From an uncultured Candidatus Saccharibacteria bacterium (lineage in GTDB: Bacteria > Patescibacteriota > Minisyncoccia > UBA6257 > 2-01-FULL-56-20): a DNA stretch of 64,000 nucleotides. The notes under the pieces were generated by a model. That model was not told where the DNA came from. It worked only from the letters and a program-made list of their open reading frames with translations, and did not search any database. A program made the position numbers and the translations under genes. The first letter of the stretch is position 1, and the number at the start of each line of letters is the position of its first letter. Shown piece by piece: positions 2,632-49,736 of this stretch. The stretch covers positions 50,458-114,457 of the forward strand of contig CAZDFQ010000001.1 in the NCBI GenBank assembly GCA_964505005.1, given 5' to 3'.

Positions 2632-3741
2632 TTATGTATATTTTGAAATATTTACAGCTATGCCACTTAAAGTTAGGAAAATCGCCAAAGCCGTACCGCC
2701 GTAACTGATAAAAGGAAGCGGCACTCCGGTTAAAGGCAGAAGTCCGGAAAGCGCGCCCATATTGACGATGGACTGAAAGGCCAGCAAGCAGCCGAAGCCG
2801 ACTAAAATTAATTGCCCAAATTTATCGCGTAAATCTTTAGCCAACCAGAAAAGCCGGAAAACCAGCAGGGCGAAAATGATTATCAGCGCGCCCGCGCCAA
2901 TGAACCCGAGTTCTTCGGCCGCCACGGCGAAAATCGAATCGCCGAAAGCCGATGGCAGATAGCTGATTTTGCTCGTCGAGCGGCCGTAGCCCAGGCCCCA
3001 TAAACCGCCGGAGCCAATGGCAATTAGCGCCTGATTTATCTGGTAACTCGCTCCCGTCGCATCATTTGCCGGTTTTAAGAAAGTGGTGATTCTTTGGAGC
3101 CGGTAAGGAGTAAACCAAATTATCAATCCCAGAAGCGCCAGACCGATAAAAGCGACTGTAAAGATGTGTCTTAATTTTGCGCCGCTGGAAAAATACATTA
3201 TCATTCCCGTGCCGAGAAGAATGACGACGGTGCTGGTGGCCGGTTGAAGAAACAGAAGCATGGCGATTAAGCCGGAAACAATCAAGAATGGTAGAAAGCC
3301 GGTGGAAAATTCTTCGCTTCTATTCATTTTAGGATTGCCCAACCAGGCAGCTAAATAAATAATGAAGGTCAGTTTGACTATTTCCGCGGGCTGGAACACG
3401 AAAGAACCGAAATTCAACCAGCGGTTGGCGCCGCCGCTCGCCACGCCTAATTTGGTGAAAACCAGCGCCAATAATCCCAGGCTGAGCAATAAAAGAATAA
3501 AAGCAATCTTCCGATAATTTTGATAATAAACCACCGAAGTGATTAAAAATCCTAGCAATCCGAATGAGAGCCCGTAAAAAATCTGATGTTTAAGATAGTA
3601 ATAGCTGTCTCCAAATCTCGATTTCCCCACTTCCGAAGAAGCGCTGGCCAAAATTACCAGGCCGGCCACGGTTAAAAGGAAGATAATGCTGACCAGAAAA
3701 TAATCCGGCCGATGCCCTCTTTTTATTAATTTGGTTGTCAT
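2632..3741 (-). CDS. ftsW: SEDS family cell division/elongation protein FtsW/RodA
   Basis: 369 aa polytopic membrane protein with typical FtsW/RodA C-terminal region; murG neighbour. Confidence 0.8.
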   Translation of the reverse strand: MTTKLIKRGHRPDYFLVSIIFLLTVAGLVILASASSEVGKSRFGDSYYYLKHQIFYGLSFGLLGFLITSVVYYQNYRKIAFILLLLSLGLLALVFTKLGVASGGANRWLNFGSFVFQPAEIVKLTFIIYLAAWLGNPKMNRSEEFSTGFLPFLIVSGLIAMLLFLQPATSTVVILLGTGMIMYFSSGAKLRHIFTVAFIGLALLGLIIWFTPYRLQRITTFLKPANDATGASYQINQALIAIGSGGLWGLGYGRSTSKISYLPSAFGDSIFAVAAEELGFIGAGALIIIFALLVFRLFWLAKDLRDKFGQLILVGFGCLLAFQSIVNMGALSGLLPLTGVPLPFISYGGTALAIFLTLSGIAVNISKYT

Positions 3742-12677: not shown

Positions 12678-12759
12678 ACTTAAGATAAAATCCTAATTTC
12701 TAAACTCTAATTTCTAAATAATCCGCCGGGTGGCGGAAAATGACTAAACCCCAAAACTA
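12678..12759. repeat. composite palindromic intergenic repeat (family 1) with central CCGCCGGGTGGCGG hairpin
   Basis: aaatcctaatttctaaactctaatttctaaataatccgccgggtggcggaaaatgactaaacc. Confidence 0.7.
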
Positions 12760-15408
12760 TTAATGATTCTTTTGTCGCTTCAGCCACTCAGCGATATTTC
12801 GGCCGTCTCTTCTAGCCCAGGCGGCATTGGAGCGGATTTTTTCCAAAACCTGCTGAATGGTTCGTTGGGCGGCTGGCGCGGGATTTTTTCCGAAGAATCG
12901 CTCTATTTCCTCAGCGCATTTCTCGTCATTAAAATGGCTGAAAGGCCTGATTATTCTGGACAGAAGGTGCCCGCCGCCGCCATAAATCTTGAGGATTTTC
13001 CGCCAGTTAGCCTTCAGGAATTCCCAAGCCAATGGTCGGCTATGAGGATTGGCCAGCAAGCCAGCCATAAATTGAGGAAAATCCTGAGGCCGGACTTTCT
13101 CGCTCAAAGAAAACTCGAGGCAATCCCGAAGAAGGTTTTTATCCTGAAAACAAGTCAGCGCTCGGCCCAGCCGGTTTTTCTCTTCCTGAAGAACTTCTTC
13201 GACATATTTTCGTTTGAGGATTTTGTATTCGTGGGTCGAGCCGTTTTCAGCTGTCAGATTGTAAACCGCGCTTCGCAAATCAGGGTCAATATTTTTCCCG
13301 CTCGCAAACAACTTTTCGGCTTTTCCGATAGTGGCCGGATCGCCATAATGGCCGTAGTTCCGCAAAATCAAAGTTCGCAATAAGATTTTAGTATGACTGT
13401 CTTTGGGAGTTTTGCGCCAGCCGACTCTTTCAGCAATGCCTGAAAAAATCTCCCGGCCTAAGGCCTTATAATCTTCGTAGAATTTCTCACCGCTTAACAA
13501 AGAATCGAGCGTTTCCAAAGACGAAGCCATCTCGGTCCAAACCGGGTAATCAGTTTCGTTTTTATAAGCTAAGCTGAGCTCCAGAGCTTTGGTCGTCTCT
13601 AATTTGCCGGCTTCAGCCAAAGAAAAAGCGTCTCGGATTACCCCCAGGCGGTCAACCGTAGCCAATCTTTTCTTTTCAATCGGCTTGGTCAGCGCCGAAA
13701 GCAAATTCTCGGAGTAGGCCGTCCGGTAAACTCCGCTTTCAGCGGCGTTGAATTTCAGCCATTTGATTCGCGGTTCGATTAAAATTTTCCTCTTCTTGGC
13801 GAATAGGAACTTTTTCGGTTTGGCGCTTTTGTCGGTTATGAATTCAACGGGAATCGGCCAAGAGGACCTATAGGACTTATTGGTCTTATAGGCCCTACTG
13901 GAATAAAATCTTTCTTGTTTCAGCAACAATCGGCCGCCGCTTTCCCTAACGCTGACCAAAGGATAGCCGGCTTTCTGAGTCCAGGCCCTCATTATTTTCC
14001 TGACCGGCTGGCGGGAAATCTCTTCCAAAGCCAGCCATAAATCGTCAGTCGTGGCATTGGCATAGGCGTGCTTTTTCAGATAATGCCTTAGTCCTCGGCG
14101 GAAATTTTCTTCGCCCAATAAATTGGCCAGCATTTTTATCACCGCCGCGCCCTTGGAATAGCTGACCGCATCGAAAATCTCGCTGATTTCATTCGGATGA
14201 TGAACTTCGACCTCGATGGGATGGGTGTTTTGCAAAGCATCCAGCTCCAAAGCCTGACCCAGTTCCCGCCAGACAAACTGCGTCCAAATATCCCATTCAG
14301 GAAACAAATGGTCAATCGCCAGATACTCAACATAAGAAGCAAAGCCCTCGTTAAGCCAGAGATGAGTCCACCATTCCATGGTCACCAGGTTGCCGAACCA
14401 TTGATGAGCCAACTCGTGAGCGATGACCAGGGCCACCCATTGTTTATTAATTGTTGATGAATGGGCCGGGTCAACCAGCAGGGCGGATTCCCGATAAGTG
14501 ACCGCTCCCCAATTCTCCATGGCTCCAGCCGCAAAATCCGGAATGGCAATCAAGTCCAAAGCCGGCAAAGGATAAGGAATCCCGAAATAATCGCTGAAAA
14601 AAGAAAGGGTCTTAGCCGCGCACTCCAGAGCGAATTCGGCCTGATATTTCTTACCCGGCGTGGTGAACACTCTGACTTTTATCCCCTCTTTGGTTTTCTT
14701 CTCAATAGATTCAAAATCGCCGACAATGAAAGCCACCAGATAAGTTGACATTTTGGGAGTCGGCGCAAAGCGGACGATTTTATAACCTGATTGGTATTCT
14801 TTTATTTCAGTTTCAACCGTGTTGGAAATGGCGGTGGTGCAGCCGGGTATCAGTAAACTTATCTCGAAGACTGCTTTTTGAGCCGGTTCGTCGAAACAAG
14901 GGAAAGCGCGTCTCGCATCAGTGGCCTCGAACTGGGTGGTAGCAATGAATTTTTCTTTTCCCTGGTGCCAATAGCGGCTGCGGTAAAACCCCGCCATCTG
15001 GTCGTTTAAAAGGCCGCGAAACACCAATCTCAATCTGCCTTCCCCTTTTTTCAATGATTTAGGGAAAATAAAGCTAACGGTTTCTTTCCTGCTGTTATAG
15101 ATTATTTTTTTTGGAATAATTTCTTCGCCAGCTGAATGGAGAATGGCGCTTTCTATCTCAATGTCTTTTGAGTGGAGAGTAATTACTCTGACTGACTTTT
15201 CGATGTTCAACAAAATGGTTTCTTCGCCTTCGAAAGTAAAATTGTCCAAGTCCGGCTTCAGAAGCAGCTCGTATTTCTCCGGCTTGATGTGGCGGGCTAA
15301 TCGGATAGATTCGTTCATAGATAATAGTGGTTGACTTCTTGAGGAGCCGTATTCTCGCTTTGGCGCACCTGAAGAGTTTATGATATAATTTATTTTACTG
15401 TTCCCCAA
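12760..15408 (-). CDS. pepN: M1 family aminopeptidase N
   Basis: 882 aa; GAMENWG exopeptidase motif and HELAHQWFGNLVTMEWW...E zinc-binding motif; likely real start at internal MNESIRLA (~15318). Confidence 0.9.
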   Translation of the reverse strand: MGNSKINYIINSSGAPKREYGSSRSQPLLSMNESIRLARHIKPEKYELLLKPDLDNFTFEGEETILLNIEKSVRVITLHSKDIEIESAILHSAGEEIIPKKIIYNSRKETVSFIFPKSLKKGEGRLRLVFRGLLNDQMAGFYRSRYWHQGKEKFIATTQFEATDARRAFPCFDEPAQKAVFEISLLIPGCTTAISNTVETEIKEYQSGYKIVRFAPTPKMSTYLVAFIVGDFESIEKKTKEGIKVRVFTTPGKKYQAEFALECAAKTLSFFSDYFGIPYPLPALDLIAIPDFAAGAMENWGAVTYRESALLVDPAHSSTINKQWVALVIAHELAHQWFGNLVTMEWWTHLWLNEGFASYVEYLAIDHLFPEWDIWTQFVWRELGQALELDALQNTHPIEVEVHHPNEISEIFDAVSYSKGAAVIKMLANLLGEENFRRGLRHYLKKHAYANATTDDLWLALEEISRQPVRKIMRAWTQKAGYPLVSVRESGGRLLLKQERFYSSRAYKTNKSYRSSWPIPVEFITDKSAKPKKFLFAKKRKILIEPRIKWLKFNAAESGVYRTAYSENLLSALTKPIEKKRLATVDRLGVIRDAFSLAEAGKLETTKALELSLAYKNETDYPVWTEMASSLETLDSLLSGEKFYEDYKALGREIFSGIAERVGWRKTPKDSHTKILLRTLILRNYGHYGDPATIGKAEKLFASGKNIDPDLRSAVYNLTAENGSTHEYKILKRKYVEEVLQEEKNRLGRALTCFQDKNLLRDCLEFSLSEKVRPQDFPQFMAGLLANPHSRPLAWEFLKANWRKILKIYGGGGHLLSRIIRPFSHFNDEKCAEEIERFFGKNPAPAAQRTIQQVLEKIRSNAAWARRDGRNIAEWLKRQKNH

Positions 15409-15929: not shown

Positions 15930-16113
15930 AAATGCAAAATGACCCGCCCGCCTTGCTTCGCAACGCGAAGCGGGCAGGCAATTAAAAATGTCAAAAATGT
16001 TTAATTCCAAAATCCGACTTTAACATTTGGTAATTTTTCAATTTTGCCTTGTCATTTTGGATTTTTCCGCCAAAGGCGGATCAGCCTTGGGCTGAGATTT
16101 TTGATTTTTGAAT

Positions 16114-17559: not shown

Positions 17560-17729
17560 ATCTTAAGAAAATCCTAATTTCTAAATCCTAAATTCTAAAT
17601 AATCTCAAATGTTCTAAATCAAAATAAAAAATATGTTTATAATTTTGGATTTTGGTCATTTGTCCGCCATCTGGCGGATTATTTAGAAATTAGATAAATT
17701 AGATATTAGGATTTAGGATTTTTTATTAT
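17560..17729. repeat. composite palindromic intergenic repeat (family 1) with central GTCCGCCATCTGGCGGA hairpin
   Basis: aatcctaatttctaaatcctaaattctaaataatctcaaat ... gtcatttgtccgccatctggcggattatttagaaattagataaattagatattaggatttagg. Confidence 0.7.
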
Positions 17730-18209
17730 TTATATCGCTCCGACTTCATTCAAGAAGGCTTCATAATCATCAAGGACTCGGGCCGCTTCCTCAGAAGAAA
17801 TTTGGAAATTCGGTTCATGGACAAGTTGATTGCGGAGGCGATGGGCCCGCCAGAGCCGTTCCAAAGTAGTGAAATCATCCGGAGATAATTGCTCTATTCT
17901 ATCAGCCATGTGCTGGCCTCTGATTCCCATACGGCGCATAATGTCGTCGGCGAAATTATCAGCTTCGATAACGGCCAGTTTTATCGACCCCGGCGACCCA
18001 GCCGCGGCTCTTTTCAAAATGGCTTCCCAACGTTCCTTTAAGGCGACGCTCCCGAGAGTGAATATTCTTTCTTCGGCTTTGAAGAATTTGAATCTTGGAT
18101 AGAATTCCCGACTGTTTACGAAAAGAAAAACCAAAAGACCAAAAATAATTAAGTCGGCGAGGATGAAAATTATTTTCAGAATATTGTAAAGAGAAGAAAA
18201 CCAATCCAT
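17730..18209 (-). CDS. hypothetical membrane-anchored protein (N-terminal TM; C-terminal RxxxxxxHE HEPN-like motif, weak)
   Basis: 159 aa; LYNILKIIFILADLIIFGLLVFLF TM; motif RAHRLRNQLVHE. Confidence 0.4.
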   Translation of the reverse strand: MDWFSSLYNILKIIFILADLIIFGLLVFLFVNSREFYPRFKFFKAEERIFTLGSVALKERWEAILKRAAAGSPGSIKLAVIEADNFADDIMRRMGIRGQHMADRIEQLSPDDFTTLERLWRAHRLRNQLVHEPNFQISSEEAARVLDDYEAFLNEVGAI

Positions 18210-21478: not shown

Positions 21479-22414
21479 TTATCTCCACAAAAAAAGAAGG
21501 GGGCTGGCGACGAAAATCGAGGAATAAATGCCGGTGGTCACGCCGACGAGCAATGTCAAAACAAAGTATTGGAGAGAGGTCGGACCGGCGAAATAAATCG
21601 CCAAAAGGACCAGAATCAGAGTCAAAGAAGTATTAATGGAGCGGGCTATTGTCTGATTTACGCTTCGATTAATCAGGGTTCCGAAATCGGTTCTGCTGCC
21701 GCCTGCGGTGAGTCGCGTCGAACCGCGGTCCAAAGAAAGATTCTCCCTGATGCGGTCGAAAACCACGATGGTATCATGGACCGAAAAACCCATCACCACC
21801 AGAATGGCCACCACGAAATTGCTGTCGATTTCTATGCCGCTGTAACGGCCGAGCACGGCCAGCAGTCCGGCCGGGATGGCGACATCGTGAAAAAGGGTAA
21901 TTAAAGTAATTAGGCCGTATTTCCATGAGCTGACCGGTTTAGACACCTTTCTGAAAGCAAAAGCGATGTAAAGAGAAATAGCAACGAGCACAAGGACGAT
22001 GGCCGTTAAAGCGCTTCTCTTCAATTCGCCGCTCACCGACGGCCCGATTGACCAAAAGTTTATCTCTTCGAACGAAGGATATTTATCTTTCAAAACCTGC
22101 AGGAATTTCTGGTGGTCGGCTTCGCTGATTATCGGCAGCCGCGCCAGAAAACTGTTGTCGGTCAAATTATAAGTGATGGTGGCCTCGGCAATGCCGAAAT
22201 CCGTTTTGAAAAGCCGGTTGAGGTCGTTGAGCGAAGGCGCTTGGGAAATTTTCCCGCCTGAGGCGGGTCCGCCTCGGGCGGAAAATTGCCAGAGCGTGCC
22301 GCTCGTGAATTCAATACCCGGCCGCAAGCCGAAAACAAGCATGACGACAATCGCCGCTCCGACCAGAACAGCGGAAAGACCGAGGAAAATGTTTTTGTGG
22401 CCGATGATATTCAT
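21479..22414 (-). CDS. secF: protein translocase subunit SecF
   Basis: 311 aa; SecF topology and conserved C-terminal TM bundle; downstream of secD. Confidence 0.9.
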   Translation of the reverse strand: MNIIGHKNIFLGLSAVLVGAAIVVMLVFGLRPGIEFTSGTLWQFSARGGPASGGKISQAPSLNDLNRLFKTDFGIAEATITYNLTDNSFLARLPIISEADHQKFLQVLKDKYPSFEEINFWSIGPSVSGELKRSALTAIVLVLVAISLYIAFAFRKVSKPVSSWKYGLITLITLFHDVAIPAGLLAVLGRYSGIEIDSNFVVAILVVMGFSVHDTIVVFDRIRENLSLDRGSTRLTAGGSRTDFGTLINRSVNQTIARSINTSLTLILVLLAIYFAGPTSLQYFVLTLLVGVTTGIYSSIFVASPLLFLWR

Positions 22415-22660
22415 AAATTTCTAAATCCTAATTTCTAATCTCTAAATAATCTCTTCGCCAGAGGCGAATCCGCCTTCGGCGGAAAAATTCAAATCTCAAA
22501 AAAATTATAAAAAGTTTTTGAATTTTAATCATTTGACATTTGGATTTGTTAATGAAGCTTCACTTCATCAATCGGTTCGCTCGGCAACCACAAGAATTTA
22601 TTTATTCTTGTATTGCCTAGCTGCCGATTGTAGAGATTAGGGTTTAGAAATTAGAGATTA
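22415..22660. repeat. composite palindromic intergenic repeat (family 1) with central GCCAGAGGCGAATCCGCCTTCGGCGG double hairpin
   Basis: ctaaatcctaatttctaatctctaaataatctcttcgccagaggcgaatccgccttcggcggaaaaattcaaatctc ... tagagattagggtttagaaattagagatt. Confidence 0.7.
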
Positions 22661-24135: not shown

Positions 24136-24342
24136 CTACTCCCCGCCGCGCTGAACGAAATGTTTCAGTGCCTCGTGTTTCATATTTTCGTCCAGCACAT
24201 CGTCAATCTCGTCCACCAGCTTGTCTATGTCCTCCTTCAGCTGTTTCCCCTTCACCATCGCCGGATTGGCAGAGGCCGGAGCCGGCGCAGGTTCCTCACG
24301 GCGCGAGGAACTCGGTTTTTCTACCCGAACTTGTTCTGCCAT
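24136..24342 (-). CDS. pup: prokaryotic ubiquitin-like protein Pup (C-terminal GGE)
   Basis: 68 aa from the SD-preceded ATG (GAGGAGGGGGAAGCC ATG): MAEQVRVEKPSSSRREEPAPAPASANPAMVKGKQLKEDIDKLVDEIDDVLDENMKHEALKHFVQRGGE; C-terminal half aligns closely with M. tuberculosis Pup ...LLDEIDDVLEENAEDFVRAYVQKGGQ. Local GC is clearly higher than flanks. Confidence 0.7.
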   Translation of the reverse strand: MAEQVRVEKPSSSRREEPAPAPASANPAMVKGKQLKEDIDKLVDEIDDVLDENMKHEALKHFVQRGGE

Positions 24343-24545
24343 GGCTTCCCCCTCCTCTTGATGCAGGGTTTGTCCGATAGCCAAAACTCTTCGCTCCTAA
24401 GTTCTATCTAAACCCTATCAGAGCGAGTTTATTTTTGTCAATTACAAAATAATATAAATCCTCGCCTAAATTTATTACTTCAATATGTCAATAACTTTCA
24501 CTACTGCCTCTTGTTTATCTTGCGCGATAAGTTAATAATGAAAAT

Positions 24546-25745
24546 ATGGCTCTTAGAAAATTAGCATTTTTTGTTTTTACCGTCCTGATTGCCTTGTCGT
24601 TCTCGATGTCGCTCGGACTGGCGGCCACAACTAAAACCACAACCAAAACTTCCTTTTACTACGCCGGCTGGCTGCCGTTCTGGAAAAAGCAGAGCGGCGC
24701 CCAGGACATTTCCGATGAATTGTATAAATTCCGCGAATTGAGTCCGTTTTCTTACGAGGTCAAGGCAGATGGCACGCTGGTTGACAAACTGAAACTGACC
24801 GAGGGTTTTTGGCCGAACTGGCTGCTAGCGGCCCGCGACGCCGGCGTAAAAATCATCCCGACCATCGCCTGGTTTGACGGCCAGGACATTCATAAACTCC
24901 TTGCCAACAAAAAGAAACGGCTTGCTCACGAAGACGCCATTGCCAAACTCGTCAAAGATATGAAATTCGACGGCATTGACATTGACTACGAAAGCAAACT
25001 GCCGGAAACCAAAGATTATTTCTCCACTTTCATCTACGGTCTGGCGCTTCGGCTGCACAGCCAGAAAAAAATTCTTTCCTGCACCATCGAGGCCCGGATG
25101 CCACTGACTTCGCTTTTGGGCGGCGTGCCCAAAGACACCCGAAGAGCCAACGATTACGCGGCTCTGAACAAATACTGCGATGAGGTGCGGGTGATGGCTT
25201 ATGACCAGGGGTTGATTGACGGCCAGCTCGACCGGGCCAAGGGCAACAGCGGCACTCTTTACGCGCCAGTGGCTGACCCGGACTGGGTGAAAAAAGTTCT
25301 CGCTGAAACCTTGAAACAGATAAGCAAGAAAAAAATTATGCTCGGCATTCCGACTTACGGCTACGAATACGAAGTCAGCTGGTCGGACGGCTTTCTGACC
25401 TACAAGCGTCTGCGCACCCATACTTTTTTCCAGGCCATAAAAAGAGCTGTGGAGGTCGGCGCTGTCCAGCAAAGAAACTCTGCCGGCGAATTGAGTTTCA
25501 CTTACAGTACCAGCAACTCGGTCGGCGACTTCTCGCCTTCGCTGACCTGGCAGGTTTCCTCAACCCAGCCCGCAGTCATTGCTTCAGCCAGCGTCAATGG
25601 CCTTGCCACGCGTTTCGTTTCATTCAGCGACGCCGAATCCGCTATGCAAAAAATAGCCCTGGCCAAAAAATTAGGGCTCCGCGGCGTGGTCTTTTTCAAG
25701 CTCGACGGCGAACAAGACCCGTTCTTGTGGGAGAAGATAAAGTGA
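24546..25745 (+). CDS. secreted glycoside hydrolase family 18 (chitinase/YaaH-like)
   Basis: 399 aa; signal peptide; GH18 catalytic motif FDGIDIDYE. Confidence 0.7.
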   Translation: MALRKLAFFVFTVLIALSFSMSLGLAATTKTTTKTSFYYAGWLPFWKKQSGAQDISDELYKFRELSPFSYEVKADGTLVDKLKLTEGFWPNWLLAARDAGVKIIPTIAWFDGQDIHKLLANKKKRLAHEDAIAKLVKDMKFDGIDIDYESKLPETKDYFSTFIYGLALRLHSQKKILSCTIEARMPLTSLLGGVPKDTRRANDYAALNKYCDEVRVMAYDQGLIDGQLDRAKGNSGTLYAPVADPDWVKKVLAETLKQISKKKIMLGIPTYGYEYEVSWSDGFLTYKRLRTHTFFQAIKRAVEVGAVQQRNSAGELSFTYSTSNSVGDFSPSLTWQVSSTQPAVIASASVNGLATRFVSFSDAESAMQKIALAKKLGLRGVVFFKLDGEQDPFLWEKIK

Positions 25746-25806
25746 AAAAATAAGCGGAGCCGAGCATGATGCCCGGCTCCTGATTACCGCGAGCAGAATC
25801 AATCCT

Positions 25807-26598
25807 TCAGAAGAAAGGAAGGATTCGCTCGAAATCGCACTCTACACCGAATCGCAGGTTGGCTCCCGCGATATAGTGTAGCATCCTGTCGAGATCTAAC
25901 GCGTCTTCCGGCATCGGTGTCCGCAGGCGTCCCTCCGCATCGATACTCAGCTCCGGGAACTCCGGGACGAGCGGCTCGATGAAGTGAAGTGTATCAGGGC
26001 CGAGACCGCCCGCGACACCGAGACCGAGTATCCAATCCTTAGGAATCGCCCGAAGATACTCGGCTAACTTCGCGGCGTCAAGGAACGCTCCCTTGCCGCC
26101 GCTCGCATCAATGAGAATCGCATCGATCATCGGCAGATAGGCGCCGACGAGTTCCTCGAAGCGTTCCATTGACTCAACCTGTGCCATTGCCTTGCTGCCG
26201 ATTTGGAGCACGAGGAACTTGTCGGGGTGAATTTCCCAGTAGTCCTCGAGGTCCGAAATCGGTGGCCAGACAATGTTGAGCTGGAAGCCGTCGAGATAGG
26301 GTCCGGCGAGCTCTGTAATCTCGACGAGTTGACTAAGCAGCGTCTCGGGATGGTCGGTGCTGTAGTGGACGAGGTTGAGCGCCCGCGGGTCATCAACGAA
26401 GATGCCTGCGACATTTTCCCTTTTGGGATACCGACCAGGCCACTTGTTCGGTTGGCCGGCGAGCGTTTTGGAGCTCATCAGAACTCCCACCATGAGGCGG
26501 CGCGTCCCTCTCTGCGGAACCACAGCGAGTGCTGTGGTGACCTCGAATCGAGACATGAACCCTGTGACGCCAATGTAGGGGCCTGTTTTCTCCGCCAT
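25807..26598 (-). CDS. phosphoribosylanthranilate isomerase (TrpF/PRAI)-fold protein
   Basis: SD GGAAAGGAGG then MAEKTGPYIGVTG...VGVL...FQLN...ILIDASGGKGAFLD...GVAGGLGPDT; matches the TrpF KxCGxT / VGVF / QLHG / GG(T)G / AGGL pattern; ~58% GC islet. Confidence 0.5.
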   Translation of the reverse strand: MAEKTGPYIGVTGFMSRFEVTTALAVVPQRGTRRLMVGVLMSSKTLAGQPNKWPGRYPKRENVAGIFVDDPRALNLVHYSTDHPETLLSQLVEITELAGPYLDGFQLNIVWPPISDLEDYWEIHPDKFLVLQIGSKAMAQVESMERFEELVGAYLPMIDAILIDASGGKGAFLDAAKLAEYLRAIPKDWILGLGVAGGLGPDTLHFIEPLVPEFPELSIDAEGRLRTPMPEDALDLDRMLHYIAGANLRFGVECDFERILPFF

Positions 26599-26752
26599 TG
26601 TGGAGCCTCCTTTCCGGCTACCAGATGACATTCCATATGGATAATTGGGATTGCTGCGGATAATATACTGAAAAAGAAAGAAATTGTCCAGCACAATCGG
26701 CAGTGGGCTAAAAGTAAATGACCATATCTTGTCCGCCCTGCAAGACCTCCGG

Positions 26753-26980
26753 CTATAAATCCTCGGGAGTAAGACCTGTATGTTTTGAAATCAGATTGAG
26801 CATGCGCGGCCCTATCTCTTCGCGTTCATGAAATGCAAAAGTAATATCTGGCCACCCAGTTCTGCTAAGTATTCTATGCGAACCGCGCTGGCGCTTGATT
26901 CGCCAACCGATGGAAAACAGCGCTTTAAGAACACGCGATGCCTTAGCGGCGCGCCATCCCATAGTCAAACAAACGAGCAA
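26753..26980 (-). CDS. hicA: HicA-family mRNA interferase toxin
   Basis: …LKALFSIGWRIKRQRGSHRIL…LNLISKHTGL matches HicA (GW..R..GSHR). Confidence 0.6.
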   Translation of the reverse strand: MLVCLTMGWRAAKASRVLKALFSIGWRIKRQRGSHRILSRTGWPDITFAFHEREEIGPRMLNLISKHTGLTPEDL

Positions 26981-27182
26981 CTGACGGCGGAGTACTGCCT
27001 TGTTCTATGCTGTCCGCTAAAGTCCTGAGGGCGATGGCGTAAGCCCGTCGTAGGGCTTCTTGTTTAGTATCTCCGTAGGCCATTACCCCCGGCAGTTTCG
27101 GGATTTCAGCAATCCACCGACCGTCATTCTCGCGGTCGAACTGAACAGTAAAGTGGGTTTTGGATTTTGATTTCATACTCAT
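26943..27182 (-). CDS. hicB: HicB-family antitoxin
   Basis: MSMKSKSKTHFTVQFDRENDGRWIAEIPKLPGVMAYGDTKQEALRRAYAIALRTLADSIEQG; UPF0150/HicB pattern (EDGGY.A.VPELPGC...G.T.EEAL). Confidence 0.55.
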   Translation of the reverse strand: MSMKSKSKTHFTVQFDRENDGRWIAEIPKLPGVMAYGDTKQEALRRAYAIALRTLADSIEQGSTPPSVARLFDYGMARR

Positions 27183-27281
27183 ACTGCTATTGCCAATAAT
27201 TATAGATAAGTTGTTGCGAATTGCAATAGAGTGATACAAGAAGTTGGTAACACAATGTGTCTCCCCAGAAGGACTCGCCGT

Positions 27282-27578
27282 CTAATCCTTAGAAAGATTG
27301 GACGAGCCTCGTCCAACTTTTTTAAAAGTTGGACGGGAACCTGCAAAAATCTTTTTAATATTATTTCGACCAGCGCGACTTTTCCAATATTTTTCTCTCG
27401 ATTTGGCCTCGGCTAAAGAGCTAACTGGCTCCATATAAATTACTTTCCATGGCCGGAAAAATTTAGTCGCCATAACTCTCCCATTATTGTGATACCAAAG
27501 CCTCTCCTCTAAATTATCTGTATAGCCAGTGTATGTTCTTGGGACTTTTTCACTCGATAAAATATATACTACAAACAT
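27282..27578 (-). CDS. small GIY-YIG nuclease domain protein (UPF0213/YhbQ-like)
   Basis: MFVVYILSS...YTGYTDNLEERLWYHN...; ATG abuts the 3' end of a tRNA-Lys fragment (GGGCGGACAAATT ATG). Confidence 0.6.
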   Translation of the reverse strand: MFVVYILSSEKVPRTYTGYTDNLEERLWYHNNGRVMATKFFRPWKVIYMEPVSSLAEAKSREKYWKSRAGRNNIKKIFAGSRPTFKKVGRGSSNLSKD

Positions 27579-27581
27579 AAT

Positions 27582-27680
27582 TTGTCCGCCCTGAAGGATT
27601 CGAACCTTCGACCATCTCCTTTCCGCCAAAGGCGGATCAGCCTCTGGCTGAAAAAGGGAGCTGCTCTCTAAAATAAATGA
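27582..27680 (-). pseudogene. tRNA-Lys 3' fragment (from D-stem 3' side to acceptor end) carrying a ~32-nt GC double-hairpin insertion at anticodon-loop position ~37/38
   Basis: AGAGCAGCTCCCTTTTT[CAGCCAGAGGCTGATCCGCCTTTGGCGG]AAAGGAGATGGTCGAAGGTTCGAATCCTTCAGGGCGGACA; identical to the intact tRNA-Lys outside the insert; 5' half replaced by AT-rich sequence. Confidence 0.55.
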
Positions 27681-27685
27681 CTTTT

Positions 27686-27762
27686 GTCCGCCCTGAAGGA
27701 TTCGAACCTTCGACCATCTCCTTAAAAGGGAGCTGCTCTACCGGACTGAGCTAAGGGCGGAC
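27686..27762 (-). tRNA. tRNA-Lys (anticodon UUU)
   Basis: GTCCGCCCTTAGCTCAGTCCGGTAGAGCAGCTCCCTTTTAAGGAGATGGTCGAAGGTTCGAATCCTTCAGGGCGGACA; cloverleaf by eye, loop CTTTTAA; flanks extend the acceptor helix (AAATGACTTTT/AAAAGTCATTT). Confidence 0.8.
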
Positions 27763-27767
27763 AAAAG

Positions 27768-28013
27768 TCATTTTAAGTTTAAATTATCAAGTAATTTTCT
27801 GCCTATGCCCGACTTAAGAATTCTTTCACGCCTTTTTGCTTCTGTAATGTTCGTATACTCCTCTTGATATATAAGCCTAAACGGCCCGTTTCTTTTAGTA
27901 AATTGGTTAGTCCCCCAATTATGCTCTTTTAACCTTTCTTCGGGCTTCAATTTTGTACTGCAAATATACCTCTTTCCGTTTCTTAAACTTTTTAAAACAT
28001 AAACGTAAAACAT
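27768..28013 (-). CDS. small GIY-YIG nuclease domain protein (UPF0213/YhbQ-like), paralog
   Basis: MFYVYVLKSLRNGKRYICSTKLKPEERLKEHN...; ATG sits inside the degenerate T-loop of an upstream tRNA-like fragment (GGGTCGAAT ATG). Confidence 0.6.
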   Translation of the reverse strand: MFYVYVLKSLRNGKRYICSTKLKPEERLKEHNWGTNQFTKRNGPFRLIYQEEYTNITEAKRRERILKSGIGRKLLDNLNLK

Positions 28014-28205
28014 ATTCGACCCTCTCCTTTCCGCCGAAGGCGGATCAGCCTCTGGCTGAAAAAGGCAGTTACTCTACCAGTTGAGCTACGGGGGATATTT
28101 ACTATCGACGAGCGCCCTGGTCCGCTAAAACTTGTTTTGCAAAGGGAGCTGCTGCTCTGCCTCCGCCAACCGGCGGATGAGCTACGGGGGGTTGTCTGCA
28201 ATCAA
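28013..28205 (-). pseudogene. two degenerate tRNA 5' fragments, each interrupted by the CCGCC..GGCGG hairpin element (one in anticodon loop, one in D-loop)
   Basis: CCCCCGTAGCTCAACTGGTAGAGTAACTGCCTTTTT[CAGCCAGAGGCTGATCCGCCTTCGGCGG]AAAGGAGAGGGTCGAAT and CCCCCGTAGCTCA[TCCGCCGGTTGGCGGA]GGCAGAGCAGCAGCTCCCTTTG. Confidence 0.4.
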
Positions 28206-28256
28206 CAAACTGCCGAACTTATGAACCGACAAACTATCAAGCTGCTAAACCTAAAC

Positions 28257-28847
28257 TTACAACCCCAGCTCTTCGTGGATGTCCTGCATTGCTTTCAGCG
28301 CAATCTCGGCCAATTCTGCCACAGAAATTCCTAAAAGTGAAGGGGTTAAATTGATTAATTCCCGGTTCACATTCCTCGCAAAGGCCTTTTCTTTCATTCG
28401 GTTCAAAATATTTTCCGGCTGCAAATCAGCCAATTTTTTCGACGGCAGAACCAGAGCCGCGGCCACAATCAAACCGGTGATTTCTTCGGTGCTATAAAGC
28501 GCTTTTTCGAGTAAGGTTTCCGGTTCCAAGCCGTGCAAATGATTATGAACCTTGACGGCTCTGACCACTTCTGCCGGAAATCCTTCTTTCGCCAAAATTT
28601 CCGCGGCAACCAGAGAATGTTTCTCCGGCTCTTTTTGAGTCATTTCCCAGTCCAAATCGTGCAAAAGGCCGGCCAGACCCCACCAATCCTCATCCTTGGC
28701 AAATCCCAACCGGCGGGCTAACGCCCTCATCAAGGCCTCGACCGCCAGACAATGTTTGATGAGATTTCCGTTTCTGATGTATCCGCGTAAAACCGCTAAA
28801 GCTTTTTCTCGAGAAAAAGAATTTTCCGTTGCCGGTTCGGTCCCCAT
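28257..28847 (-). CDS. HD-domain phosphohydrolase
   Basis: 196 aa; HCLAVEALMRALARRLG...GLLHDLDWE HD motif. Confidence 0.7.
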   Translation of the reverse strand: MGTEPATENSFSREKALAVLRGYIRNGNLIKHCLAVEALMRALARRLGFAKDEDWWGLAGLLHDLDWEMTQKEPEKHSLVAAEILAKEGFPAEVVRAVKVHNHLHGLEPETLLEKALYSTEEITGLIVAAALVLPSKKLADLQPENILNRMKEKAFARNVNRELINLTPSLLGISVAELAEIALKAMQDIHEELGL

Positions 28848-49019: not shown

Positions 49020-49260
49020 ATCAAACTGCCTCCTTCCCGGCTCTTAGCCGAGAGTATTGTCCTGGGTTTAATTGCCCTTTATGAAAAGCTGCAACTTCCC
49101 AGAAAGGATAATCAAAATTTTATCTTTAAATTTATAAAATCGGGATTTATATGCAAAGAGAGGTTGCGAAGCAACCGGCTGAAAACCCCGTGTTGGAAGA
49201 TAGGAGCGAAGCGACGTAAGAAACCCGAGGGTGTCTTAAGCGGGGGTCGGGGTTTTCAGG

Positions 49261-49549
49261 TGCCGCGGGGGTGAATCGAACACCCGACGCCATGCTCTTC
49301 CATAAGGACTATATCATCATCCGGTTTTCAAACGGATGCGAGGCGCTTCCTCCGACGTAACGTCGGCGTACTCCCAAAGGGATAGTCTCTACACCTGCCC
49401 CGGCTAATGTCGGGGATTGGCTCGGGATTGTCCGCCCCATCCGTAGATGCCGGCGGAGTTCCCCCGAATTCACCTCGTTTTCATCTAAGCATTACTGCTT
49501 AGCGGCCCGAAGATTCCAGGCATGCGCTCTACCACTGAGCTACCGCGGC
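49261..49549 (-). tRNA. tRNA (probably Phe, anticodon GAA after splicing) interrupted by a ~217-nt group I intron in the anticodon loop
   Basis: 5' exon GCCGCGGTAGCTCAGTGGTAGAGCGCATGCCT (49549-49518), 3' exon GAAGAGCATGGCGTCGGGTGTTCGATTCACCCCCGCGGCA (49300-49261); intron (49517-49301) ends in G, preceding exon ends in U, and contains GGTGTAGAGACTA and CCGAGCCAA, near-identical to the Azoarcus tRNA-Ile group I (IC3) intron core; exon junction and anticodon are inferred. Confidence 0.65.
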
Positions 49550-49736
49550 AGTACTCGTTAATGATAACAAATTAGATTGAGCTTTCAAATAGAAACCCTT
49601 AAAGCGTTCCGCAACAGATCTGTTGGTAGCAGGACGGCGGTCATTTATTAAGGTCATAGATAACTCCGTAGTGTTATGCTACAGCATAACACCCGCCAAT
49701 ACTCTCTTTTTGCTTTCTACCACGATGAATTCATAT

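Follow-up and report, generated by a model that had tools for sequence, protein, structure and literature searches.

A 64-kb window of a Patescibacteria (candidate phyla radiation, CPR) genome, by which we mean the whole stretch of DNA that was analysed, contains a tRNA-Lys(UUU) locus in which one intact tRNA gene stands among partial tRNA copies, GC-rich hairpins and two small open reading frames (ORFs), g1 and g2, coding for proteins with a GIY-YIG domain. Every feature of the locus is on the minus strand, within 28191-27260, with an HD-domain gene upstream and hicB/hicA downstream. The features are as follows.

28191-28141, minus strand: fragment C, tRNA nt 1-35 with the acceptor strand CCCCCCG and a 16-nt hairpin in the D-loop, recognized by reading the sequence
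28177-28162, minus strand: single hairpin in the D-loop of fragment C, TCCGCCGGTTGGCGGA, TCCGCC-GGTT-GGCGGA
28095-28014, minus strand: fragment B, nt 1-36 of tRNA-Lys of the old type, followed by a 30-nt double hairpin and by nt 37-51 of the new type (AAGGAGAGGGTCGAA)
28059-28030, minus strand: double hairpin HP1 in fragment B, TCAGCC-AGA-GGCTGA then TCCGCC-TTC-GGCGGA
28013-27768, minus strand: g1, an ORF of 81 amino acids with a single GIY-YIG domain, of a subfamily located directly upstream of tRNA genes
27761-27773, minus strand: leader arm, a 13-bp extension of the acceptor stem, overlapping the g1 stop codon
27760-27686, minus strand: intact replacement tRNA-Lys(UUU), found by ARAGORN and by Rfam (tRNA, 68.8 bits), acceptor CCGCCCU/AGGGCGG
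27675-27687, minus strand: trailer arm, an extension of the acceptor stem and the partner of the leader arm in an inverted repeat
27667-27585, minus strand: fragment A, an exact tRNA-Lys copy from the D-stem 3' strand to the discriminator, with HP1 after base 36
27651-27622, minus strand: double hairpin HP1 in fragment A, TCAGCCAGAGGCTGATCCGCCTTTGGCGGA, 30 nt
27578-27282, minus strand: g2, a GIY-YIG ORF of 98 amino acids, of a subfamily located directly downstream of tRNA genes
27344-27260, minus strand: pseudo T-arm, the 3' end of a tRNA whose T-loop contains a double hairpin; it overlaps g2 at the latter's 3' end

ARAGORN and Rfam both call just one tRNA at the locus, the intact tRNA-Lys(UUU) that had been claimed in an earlier note on this DNA. 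Its acceptor stem and the 13 bp of leader and trailer together form a perfect 20-bp inverted repeat (fold z-score -7.6). Fragment A is composed of two blocks (16 nt and 41 nt), each 100% identical to tRNA-Lys, and was thus rightly described as an exact copy of the 3' two-thirds of the tRNA. As the two blocks adjoin each other in the tRNA and are separated by 30 nt in the fragment, the insert is exactly 30 nt long and lies at 36/37, after the third anticodon base; a length of 32 nt and a position at 37/38 had been given before. The fragment lacks the 5' strands of the acceptor stem and of the D-stem, and its 3' end is 6 nt ahead of the g2 ATG. In fragment B, HP1 occupies the same place, with one loop difference; the segment that follows it is AAGGAGAGGGTCGAAT, with AAGGAG 9 nt ahead of the g1 ATG. 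This fragment has neither T-arm nor 3' end, and its anticodon-stem strands ACTGC and GGAGA are unpaired. The second fragment with the same insert, the two GIY-YIG genes beginning at fragment ends (ATG 28013 after B, ATG 27578 after A) and the variant hairpin in the D-loop of a third fragment, which is fragment C, had all been noticed correctly. However, of the at least three fragments reported to carry a double hairpin, only A and B do so, the hairpin of C being single, and a fourth fragment, the pseudo T-arm, had been overlooked. The order of its parts is GCAGG-TTC, a hairpin (27336-27310), AGG, a second hairpin (27306-27278) and CGAGT-CCTTC-TGGGGAG-A, with an acceptor strand of the ancestral poly-G type, and the final 20 codons of g2 read through these hairpins.

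Both ORFs encode the catalytic domain alone (81 and 98 amino acids) and exceed the Pfam cut-off for GIY-YIG (PF01541; 22.6 bits), g2 with 54.4 bits and g1 with 44.8 bits. They match each other with 37% identity (phmmer, E ~1e-10). Being distant paralogues, from two subfamilies with opposite tRNA polarity, they do not represent a tandem duplication of a unit made of fragment, hairpin and GIY-YIG gene, as had been proposed. A profile of g1 homologues matches the UPF0213 structures 1ZG2 and 1YWL by sequence, and a structure model of g1 (predicted local distance difference test, pLDDT, 87.8) matches the folds of 1ZG2 and of Slx1 in complex with branched DNA, 6SEI (probability 0.99 each), HIGLE 7WME (0.97) and I-TevI 1LN0 (0.54). 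Residues Y4, Y15, R26, H30, E50 and E62 are invariant in 20 sequences of the g1/g2 type; the Tyr/Tyr/Arg/Glu among them we take, by analogy, to be the GIY-YIG catalytic residues. Judged by these matches, g1 and g2 belong to the UPF0213/Slx1-like branch of the GIY-YIG superfamily, and nuclease activity is predicted for them. The family comprises 8,548 clusters at 50% identity (E <= 0.001), almost all of the best 150 listed being small proteins, and the database labels place g1 relatives in many Patescibacteria, in Omnitrophota, Elusimicrobia and Margulisiibacteriota, and in other metagenome-assembled genomes (MAGs). A phage origin of g1 and g2 was considered and rejected, as a PHROG search with both (E <= 0.001) gave no family and a search of IMG/VR gave no relatives of g1.

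To place the locus among its relatives, related loci were picked by protein similarity alone, the g1 and g2 families being searched separately. The g1 family contributed 73 loci from genomes and the g2 family 80 from metagenomes, which makes 153. The ORFs are tightly linked to tRNA genes. An intact tRNA lies on the same strand within 100 nt of the ORF in 108 of the 147 ORFs with enough flank (73%), against a background of 0.085 tRNA per kb, and these 108 ORFs span 34 anticodon species. The two subfamilies have opposite polarity: g1-like ORFs precede the tRNA (45 vs 4 in the reverse order) and g2-like ORFs follow it (43 vs 13). Of the 65 cases in which the ORF comes first, 30 have a reading frame that enters the tRNA, and 14 end at UAG/UAA of tRNA nt 8-10. 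The basic unit, which we call a cassette, is a nuclease ORF of 80-100 amino acids adjoining a tRNA gene. In the g1 subfamily it lies immediately 5' of the intact tRNA and an orphan 5' tRNA piece is left upstream; in the g2 subfamily it lies immediately 3' of the intact tRNA and an orphan 3' piece is left downstream. One working tRNA is always retained beside the cassettes. The orphan piece ends or is broken in the D-, anticodon- or T-loop, usually with a conserved GC hairpin, or a pair of them, at that point.

Partial duplication of the tRNA accompanies the ORF: across the ORF from the adjoining tRNA there is usually a partial copy of it (z-scores up to 67). Pieces of the 5' kind run from nt 1 to nt 12-17, 35-37 or 53-60, and those of the 3' kind from near nt 15-18, 28-30 or 55-57 to nt 73-76, the former being as common as the latter. 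Across about 150 loci the inserted unit measures 300-600 nt and contains the nuclease ORF only, and tandem arrays of ORF and pseudo-tRNA are present at three loci (L113, L154 and L136). The six closest homologues of g1 (60-72% identical; L008, L010, L013, L015, L016 and L019) all have the same arrangement of tRNA-Lys 1-36, the same double hairpin, nt 37-47, ORF and intact tRNA-Lys, and in L010, L013, L016 and L019 there is also a right-hand hairpin-bearing copy like fragment A. The cassettes are mobile among tRNA species: close relatives are found at different tRNA genes and in several copies per genome, L010 and L019 being cassettes at both tRNA-Lys isoacceptor genes of one MAG, and homologues of g2 (57-86% identity) lying behind tRNA-Glu, tRNA-Lys(CUU), tRNA-Arg, tRNA-Leu(CAG) and tRNA-Leu(UAA).

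Two further observations concern the tRNAs of such cassettes. At L013 (2830-3080), the trailer, a spacer and the hairpin-bearing 3' part of tRNA-Lys are tandemly repeated twice after the intact tRNA, and this 3' part has a second hairpin in its T-arm. Pairing leader and trailer extensions, unrelated in sequence, occur at the cassette tRNAs of L013, L019, L027, L063, L064 and L002 and are absent from 120 other tRNAs; being found in just a few cassettes of the ORF-tRNA order, the leader/trailer helix was rejected as a general cassette feature.

The hairpins, in turn, are linked to the cassettes. A perfect GC-rich hairpin is present within 120 nt of 50/62 g1-like and 52/81 g2-like ORFs, compared with 3/133 control windows, and 97 of the 117 hairpins of the TCCGCC/GGCGGA type in related loci are no more than 200 nt from the ORF. 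Their positions in pseudo-tRNAs are recurrent:

D-loop, 17/18: pseudo-copies of ten or more tRNA species
36/37: Lys, all seven of its cassettes
12/13 and 56/57: further positions
in place of the anticodon arm (nt 26-42): Ile, Gly
in place of nt 39-48: Met

By stem type, 69 hairpins are TCCGCC/GGCGGA, 42 TCAGCC/GGCTGA, 13 CCAGCC/GGCTGG, 9 GTCGCC/GGCGAC and 7 CCCGCC/GGCGGG. The outer three stem pairs covary, the loop sequences vary freely, and the core found across phyla is nnCGCC/GGCGnn or nnAGCC/GGCTnn. The g2-type element has the form GGTTC, two hairpins, CGAnT, the 3' strand of the T-stem and the 3' strand of the acceptor stem; at nine loci it is 95.5% paired, with compensatory changes in ten pairs, and slid controls reach at most 51%. 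Solo copies of this g2-type motif were looked for in the window and in 176 loci and none was found, the motif being present only at the 3' ends of g2 homologues.

Other hairpins do occur alone. In the window there are ten sites of the TCCGCC-N3-5-GGCGGA motif (0.12 expected) and four occurrences of the full double-hairpin pattern (0.00 expected). Further solo hairpins include those at 22253 and 22469, and spacer copies are found in both orientations. The solo copies of HP1 are these.

16066-16095, minus strand: solo HP1 copy in an intergenic spacer, 19 nt past a stop codon
63614-63643, plus strand: solo HP1 copy in an intergenic spacer

Ten IMG/VR contigs also contain the exact double hairpin, with no tRNA and no GIY-YIG ORF close to it. 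Within secF (21479-22414), a 30-nt double hairpin, CCCGCCTGAGGCGGG-TCCGCCTCGGGCGGA (22253-22282, minus strand), is in frame and encodes SARGGPASGG in a variable periplasmic loop; it is at most a possible insertion, as this region aligns poorly with SecF of the related loci L161 and L165. The spacers 12680-12760, 17580-17730 and 22415-22530 contain short repeats of the CTAAAT/TTCTAAA type beside single or paired GC hairpins, and two of them have the common flank CTAATTTCTAAATAA, hairpin, AAATGAC.

The conserved gene order in relatives is HD gene, tRNA-Lys(UUU), secD, secF, and it allowed us to compare the tRNA-Lys site itself, as the earlier note had suggested. Both empty and filled alleles of it exist. 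In L165 the syntenic site contains an uninterrupted tRNA-Lys (acceptor CCCCTCG/CGGGGGG), and in L161 and L162 about 440 nt with a second tRNA-Lys(UUU) interrupt, after nt 35, a tRNA whose acceptor is CCCCCCA/TGGGGGG. In L161 (5636-6058) the stems of the old tRNA-Lys are perfectly paired, and the insert of about 440 nt contains a complete tRNA-Lys(UUU) and no ORF; an Rfam search of this insert at E <= 10 found no intron or other family. A poly-C acceptor signature is common to fragments B and C, the tRNA-Lys of L165 and the old half in L161, and the remnant after g2 ends with TGGGGAG. Fragment B joins an old-type 5' part (CTGCC, as in L161) to a new-type segment after the hairpin (GGTCGAA), which indicates that the hairpin marks the junction of old and inserted DNA. 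A second set of alleles is provided by L002-L006: the nuclease of L004, L005 and L006 is identical to that of L002 and L003, and the upstream tRNA is intact in L004-L006 and split in L002 and L003. L002 and L004 were compared by direct reading, the repeat of the trailer GCACAAAAAAATT having led automatic alignment astray.

Between the tRNA-Lys locus and secD lies a GC-richer islet of about 3.3 kb (24136-27239), absent in L161 and L165, with hicB/hicA, an ORF of 295 amino acids without a Pfam match, a GH18 gene and pup, and with no recombinase. In a Wolfebacteria relative (L164), the syntenic tRNA-Lys is intact and an ORF of 279 amino acids (675-1590), with a faint LAGLIDADG match, begins 3 nt after it; 2 kb off there is a Y1 transposase gene (2920-3642) of the IS200/RAYT type (RAYT, tyrosine transposase associated with repetitive extragenic palindromes, REPs).

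Since the ancestral tRNA-Lys is intact in the syntenic locus L165, the window can be read as a nested scar with at least two cassettes and a replacement tRNA. We consider it fairly probable, though well short of certain, that this scar arose through two or more insertions of small selfish GIY-YIG cassettes into one resident tRNA-Lys(UUU). Several features are those of a homing cassette: the ORFs lie outside any intron and beside their presumed target tRNA, with no intron-model match at the locus, and the orthologous tRNA-Lys site shows presence/absence polymorphism, L165 having it empty and both the window and L161 having it disrupted. The ancestral tRNA-Lys would then survive in the window as fragments C and B, its 5' halves, and as the T-arm with the adjoining 3' end that follows g2. 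The tRNA at 27760-27686 would be a replacement copy, and fragment A an earlier working copy ahead of g2 that lost its 5' third and was disabled by the hairpin. In a tentative order of events, a g2 cassette would have entered the T-loop, and later events in the anticodon loop would have brought g1, the hairpins and the replacement tRNA. As for the mechanism, the nuclease, a relative of Slx1 and UPF0213, may break the DNA of tRNA genes at loop positions, and the break may be repaired by recombination with a cassette-bearing copy, as in homing, or, in ectopic events, via the short conserved D-loop and T-loop sequences. The outcome would be partial tRNA duplications, by analogy with experiments on phage SegB. 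The hairpin would move with the cassette and most likely acts on DNA, either being read by the nuclease or interrupting the disabled copy, which is the weakest step of the proposal.

A number of points weigh against this account. The sequence of insertion events can be proposed only tentatively, and the remnant at 27277-27260 is tied to the ancestral tRNA by a 7-nt acceptor signature with one mismatch. DNA cleavage by this family is predicted, and its target and the form of its substrate (duplex, cruciform, single strand or RNA) are putative. The E-values of the fold search are weak (0.009-0.8) for a query of 80 amino acids. The intact tRNA, with an unfilled CTTTT/AAGGAG site, lies 300 nt from a filled pseudo-copy, so that the nuclease would not be a simple homing enzyme there unless it is repressed. 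The hairpin occurs alone, in the window and in the 10 IMG/VR contigs without GIY-YIG, and may thus be an independent element. Finally, the duplication of about 50 nt that flanks g1 and the tRNA is not predicted by simple double-strand-break repair.

The last but one of these points leads to the most serious alternative, to which we give a minor but real chance: the hairpins would be miniature palindromes that move independently, similar to REPs or to the double-hairpin elements of mitochondria, and the GIY-YIG cassettes would make the pseudo-copies with no functional link between the two. Such palindromes would insert into exposed loops or AT-rich spacers and would be visible in pseudo-tRNAs because these are the only tRNA-shaped targets that tolerate them. 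The solo copies in spacers in both orientations, the in-frame 30-nt pair within secF and the IMG/VR contigs all agree with this, as do the extra hairpin-type insertions of L002 relative to L004, whose nuclease protein is identical. The suggestion of the earlier note that the hairpin is a small mobile element targeting tRNA loops is thus right as far as a dispersed element, also found alone, is concerned, but it is only part of the story. The same pair recurs at D-loop 17/18 in pseudo-copies of at least ten tRNA species and at 36/37 in all seven Lys cassettes, which makes co-transfer with the ORF more parsimonious than many independent insertions. Moreover, by our estimate, hairpins in pseudo-copies reach about 17 times the density that they have in the remaining non-coding DNA of the same loci, the g2-type pair has no solo copy, and the hairpin core is invariant even though the ORFs diverge to 40-50% identity. 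We regard it as improbable that the GIY-YIG proteins are instead domesticated host genes, co-transcribed with tRNAs and serving tRNA or DNA repair or defence, with the hairpin-bearing tRNA-like pieces acting as processing or stability signals of the mRNA and not as scars. Co-transcription itself is likely, as the ORFs are fused to tRNAs without a spacer and nt 8-10 of the tRNA are often the stop codon; some hairpins take the place of an arm precisely from its base, so that the tRNA-like outline is kept, the replacement tRNA has its leader/trailer helix, and among the non-Watson-Crick stem cells on the sense strand G-U exceeds A-C, 16 to 7. This G-U excess, however, conflicts with the g2 hairpins, which have 23 compensatory cells and zero G-U. 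Domestication is also at odds with the occurrence of close homologues beside different tRNA species and of several copies in one genome, with presence/absence differences between alleles and with the tandem arrays of ORF and pseudo-tRNA (L113, L154, L136); the pseudo-copies, lacking an acceptor strand, cannot be substrates of RNase P or RNase Z, and a promoter/terminator scan gave no signal above chance.

An explanation by recombinases has very little to recommend it in our view. It takes the fragments for attL/attR-type duplications left by tyrosine or serine recombinase islands at tRNA-Lys, with GIY-YIG as passive cargo. The break points in the anticodon loop and the T-loop, the classical crossover sites of tRNA-targeting integrases, fit it, and so does the 3.3-kb islet with hicBA, GH18 and pup that, in comparison with L161 and L165, separates secD from the tRNA locus. 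However, the 930-nt unit and its surroundings, whose ORFs are GIY-YIG, HD, HicB and HicA, have no recombinase, the units inserted at the related loci bear nothing besides the nuclease ORF, 5' fragments and D-loop break points are common, unlike what an integrase model predicts, and a tRNA 3' repeat looked for at the far end of the islet was not there. Of the att-site idea in the earlier note, the duplications from repeated insertions and the nuclease cargo hold, and the integrase mechanism falls, 5' fragments also being present. The least credible of all, to the point of being nearly negligible, is that the 30-nt double hairpin is a protein-spliced (bulge-helix-bulge) intron and that one or more of the hairpin-bearing copies are processed to a functional tRNA. 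The insert does lie in the anticodon loop, adjoining the canonical intron site, and the stems around it are preserved in fragment A. Against this, it is at 36/37 rather than 37/38, and neither A, with the 5' strands of the acceptor stem and D-stem gone, nor B, without T-arm and 3' end and with an unpaired anticodon stem, offers complete tRNA exons. The identical element is also present outside tRNAs or away from the anticodon loop, in D-loops, spacers, a protein-coding gene and phage-like contigs, and the archaeal-type intron raised by the earlier note thus finds no place here. ARAGORN with intron detection, at default and relaxed thresholds, found nothing at the locus beyond the intact tRNA except low-threshold artefacts, deletion of the hairpins in silico created no new tRNA in a repeated ARAGORN run, and the covariance scores of fragments A and B in Rfam (26.4 and 17.1 bits) are below the threshold of 29. 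A group I intron was rejected as well: Rfam at E <= 10 over 27200-28300 gave no match to RF00028, to another intron family or to any further family, and 30 nt is much too short for a ribozyme core. Elsewhere, the window does contain one genuine intron-bearing tRNA, of the bacterial self-splicing kind. This is tRNA-Phe(GAA) (49259-49551, minus strand), missed by ARAGORN, which reads GCCGCGGTAGCTCAG...GCATGCCT, intron, GAAGAGCATGG...CCCGCGGCA and has a group I intron directly behind U33 (RF00028, 63.6 bits, 49295-49527).

Within the cassette-insertion reading, it is conceivable, though we think it unlikely, that the conserved hairpin (nnCGCC-loop-GGCGnn) is itself read and cut by the nuclease of 80-100 amino acids. 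If so, hairpin and nuclease, with or without a tRNA, would make up a previously undescribed minimal hairpin-directed mobile element. The Lys form would then be a natural 'cleave-and-rescue' drive, in which the resident tRNA is disabled by the hairpin and the sole working copy sits with the nuclease between direct repeats, so that loss of the cassette would mean loss of the tRNA. As to the role of the hairpin in general, a rough division of our belief gives the largest share, somewhat under a half, to a cassette component acting on DNA, a clearly smaller one to an independent palindromic element and the smallest to a role at the RNA level.

The locus provides a concrete biological setting for a large orphan family whose solved structures remain labelled 'hypothetical UPF0213'. 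Its members look like selfish nucleases residing on the tRNA genes of CPR bacteria, Omnitrophota and further uncultured lineages. The tRNA genes of these small genomes would be turned over by nested replacement, which affects tRNA annotation, calls of pseudo-'introns', assembly breaks and the inference of horizontal transfer. Should the hairpin be the recognition element of the nuclease, a hairpin-reading nuclease of 80 amino acids would be a mobile element of a novel kind and might serve as a tool.

Among known systems, the closest in behaviour is SegB, a phage-encoded protein over twice the length of g1 and g2, with a DNA-binding C-terminal part. SegB of phages T4 and T6, a free-standing homing endonuclease of the GIY-YIG type encoded in the tRNA gene cluster, cuts within tRNA genes at a conserved T-loop-like motif and is linked to many tRNA isotypes (PMC13096335; Brok-Volchanskaya 2008 cited there). 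Its cleavage, followed by microhomology recombination between the 5' end of the tRNA and the 3' end of the nuclease gene, leads to tandem repeats of tRNA and segB (PMC13096335). Here, too, a GIY-YIG gene lies among tRNA genes of many isotypes, and the SegB repeats are similar to the arrays of L113, L154 and L136 and to the partial duplications at the present locus. As the SegB work (PMC13096335) shows that such nucleases can remodel tRNA gene dosage, the cassettes may matter for host tRNA supply or phage defence. In contrast to SegB, g1 and g2 are chromosomal proteins of 81-98 amino acids without a PHROG family and group with UPF0213/Slx1 and not with I-TevI-like enzymes, and the conserved hairpin module present in the cassettes has not been described for SegB. 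By analogy, then, the locus behaves like a free-standing homing-endonuclease cassette, and not as a SegB homologue.

The proteins themselves are closest to the branch of UPF0213, YhbQ, YazA and Slx1 (1ZG2, 1YWL, 6SEI), which has the same single-domain fold and gave the best sequence and structure matches to g1 and g2. YhbQ and YazA belong with Slx1 to a single family of structure-selective nucleases (PMC7017083), and the selectivity of Slx1 for branched DNA fits break points at the loops of cloverleaf-forming tRNA genes. Slx1 differs in having a zinc-finger domain and requiring Slx4, whereas g1 and g2 are the GIY-YIG domain only; the bacterial UPF0213 proteins have no established function. Our literature search turned up neither a link of the UPF0213 family to tRNA genes, partial gene duplications or hairpin repeats, nor a tRNA-linked nuclease/hairpin system of this kind.

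In Allomyces mitochondria, a GIY-YIG ORF is inserted with a partial duplication of the end of the host gene. The double-hairpin elements (DHEs) of fungal mitochondria are short GC-rich elements of two adjacent hairpins that are presumed to be mobile (PMC10085805, citing Paquin and Lang 1996-2000). The hairpins described here resemble DHEs and REP palindromes in being scattered in spacers, and sometimes within genes, of an AT-richer genome, and differ in being bacterial, 15-30 nt long, alike in their core across phyla and concentrated in the loops of tRNA pseudo-copies beside nuclease ORFs. As for the RAYT-type transposase associated with REPs, a tblastn search with the Y1 transposase protein of L164 gave no match in the 64 kb of the window or in the related loci. 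A further comparison is with the insertions in CPR rRNA genes, which lie at the tops or bases of stem-loops and of which some non-intron ones encode GIY-YIG proteins; tRNA genes are not treated in that study (0 mentions; PMC11270868). The bacterial group, the structured-RNA gene as target and the GIY-YIG coding are the same in both cases. However, the insertions in rRNA genes are removed from the transcript, whereas here the interrupted tRNA copies are dead and an intact copy is kept alongside.

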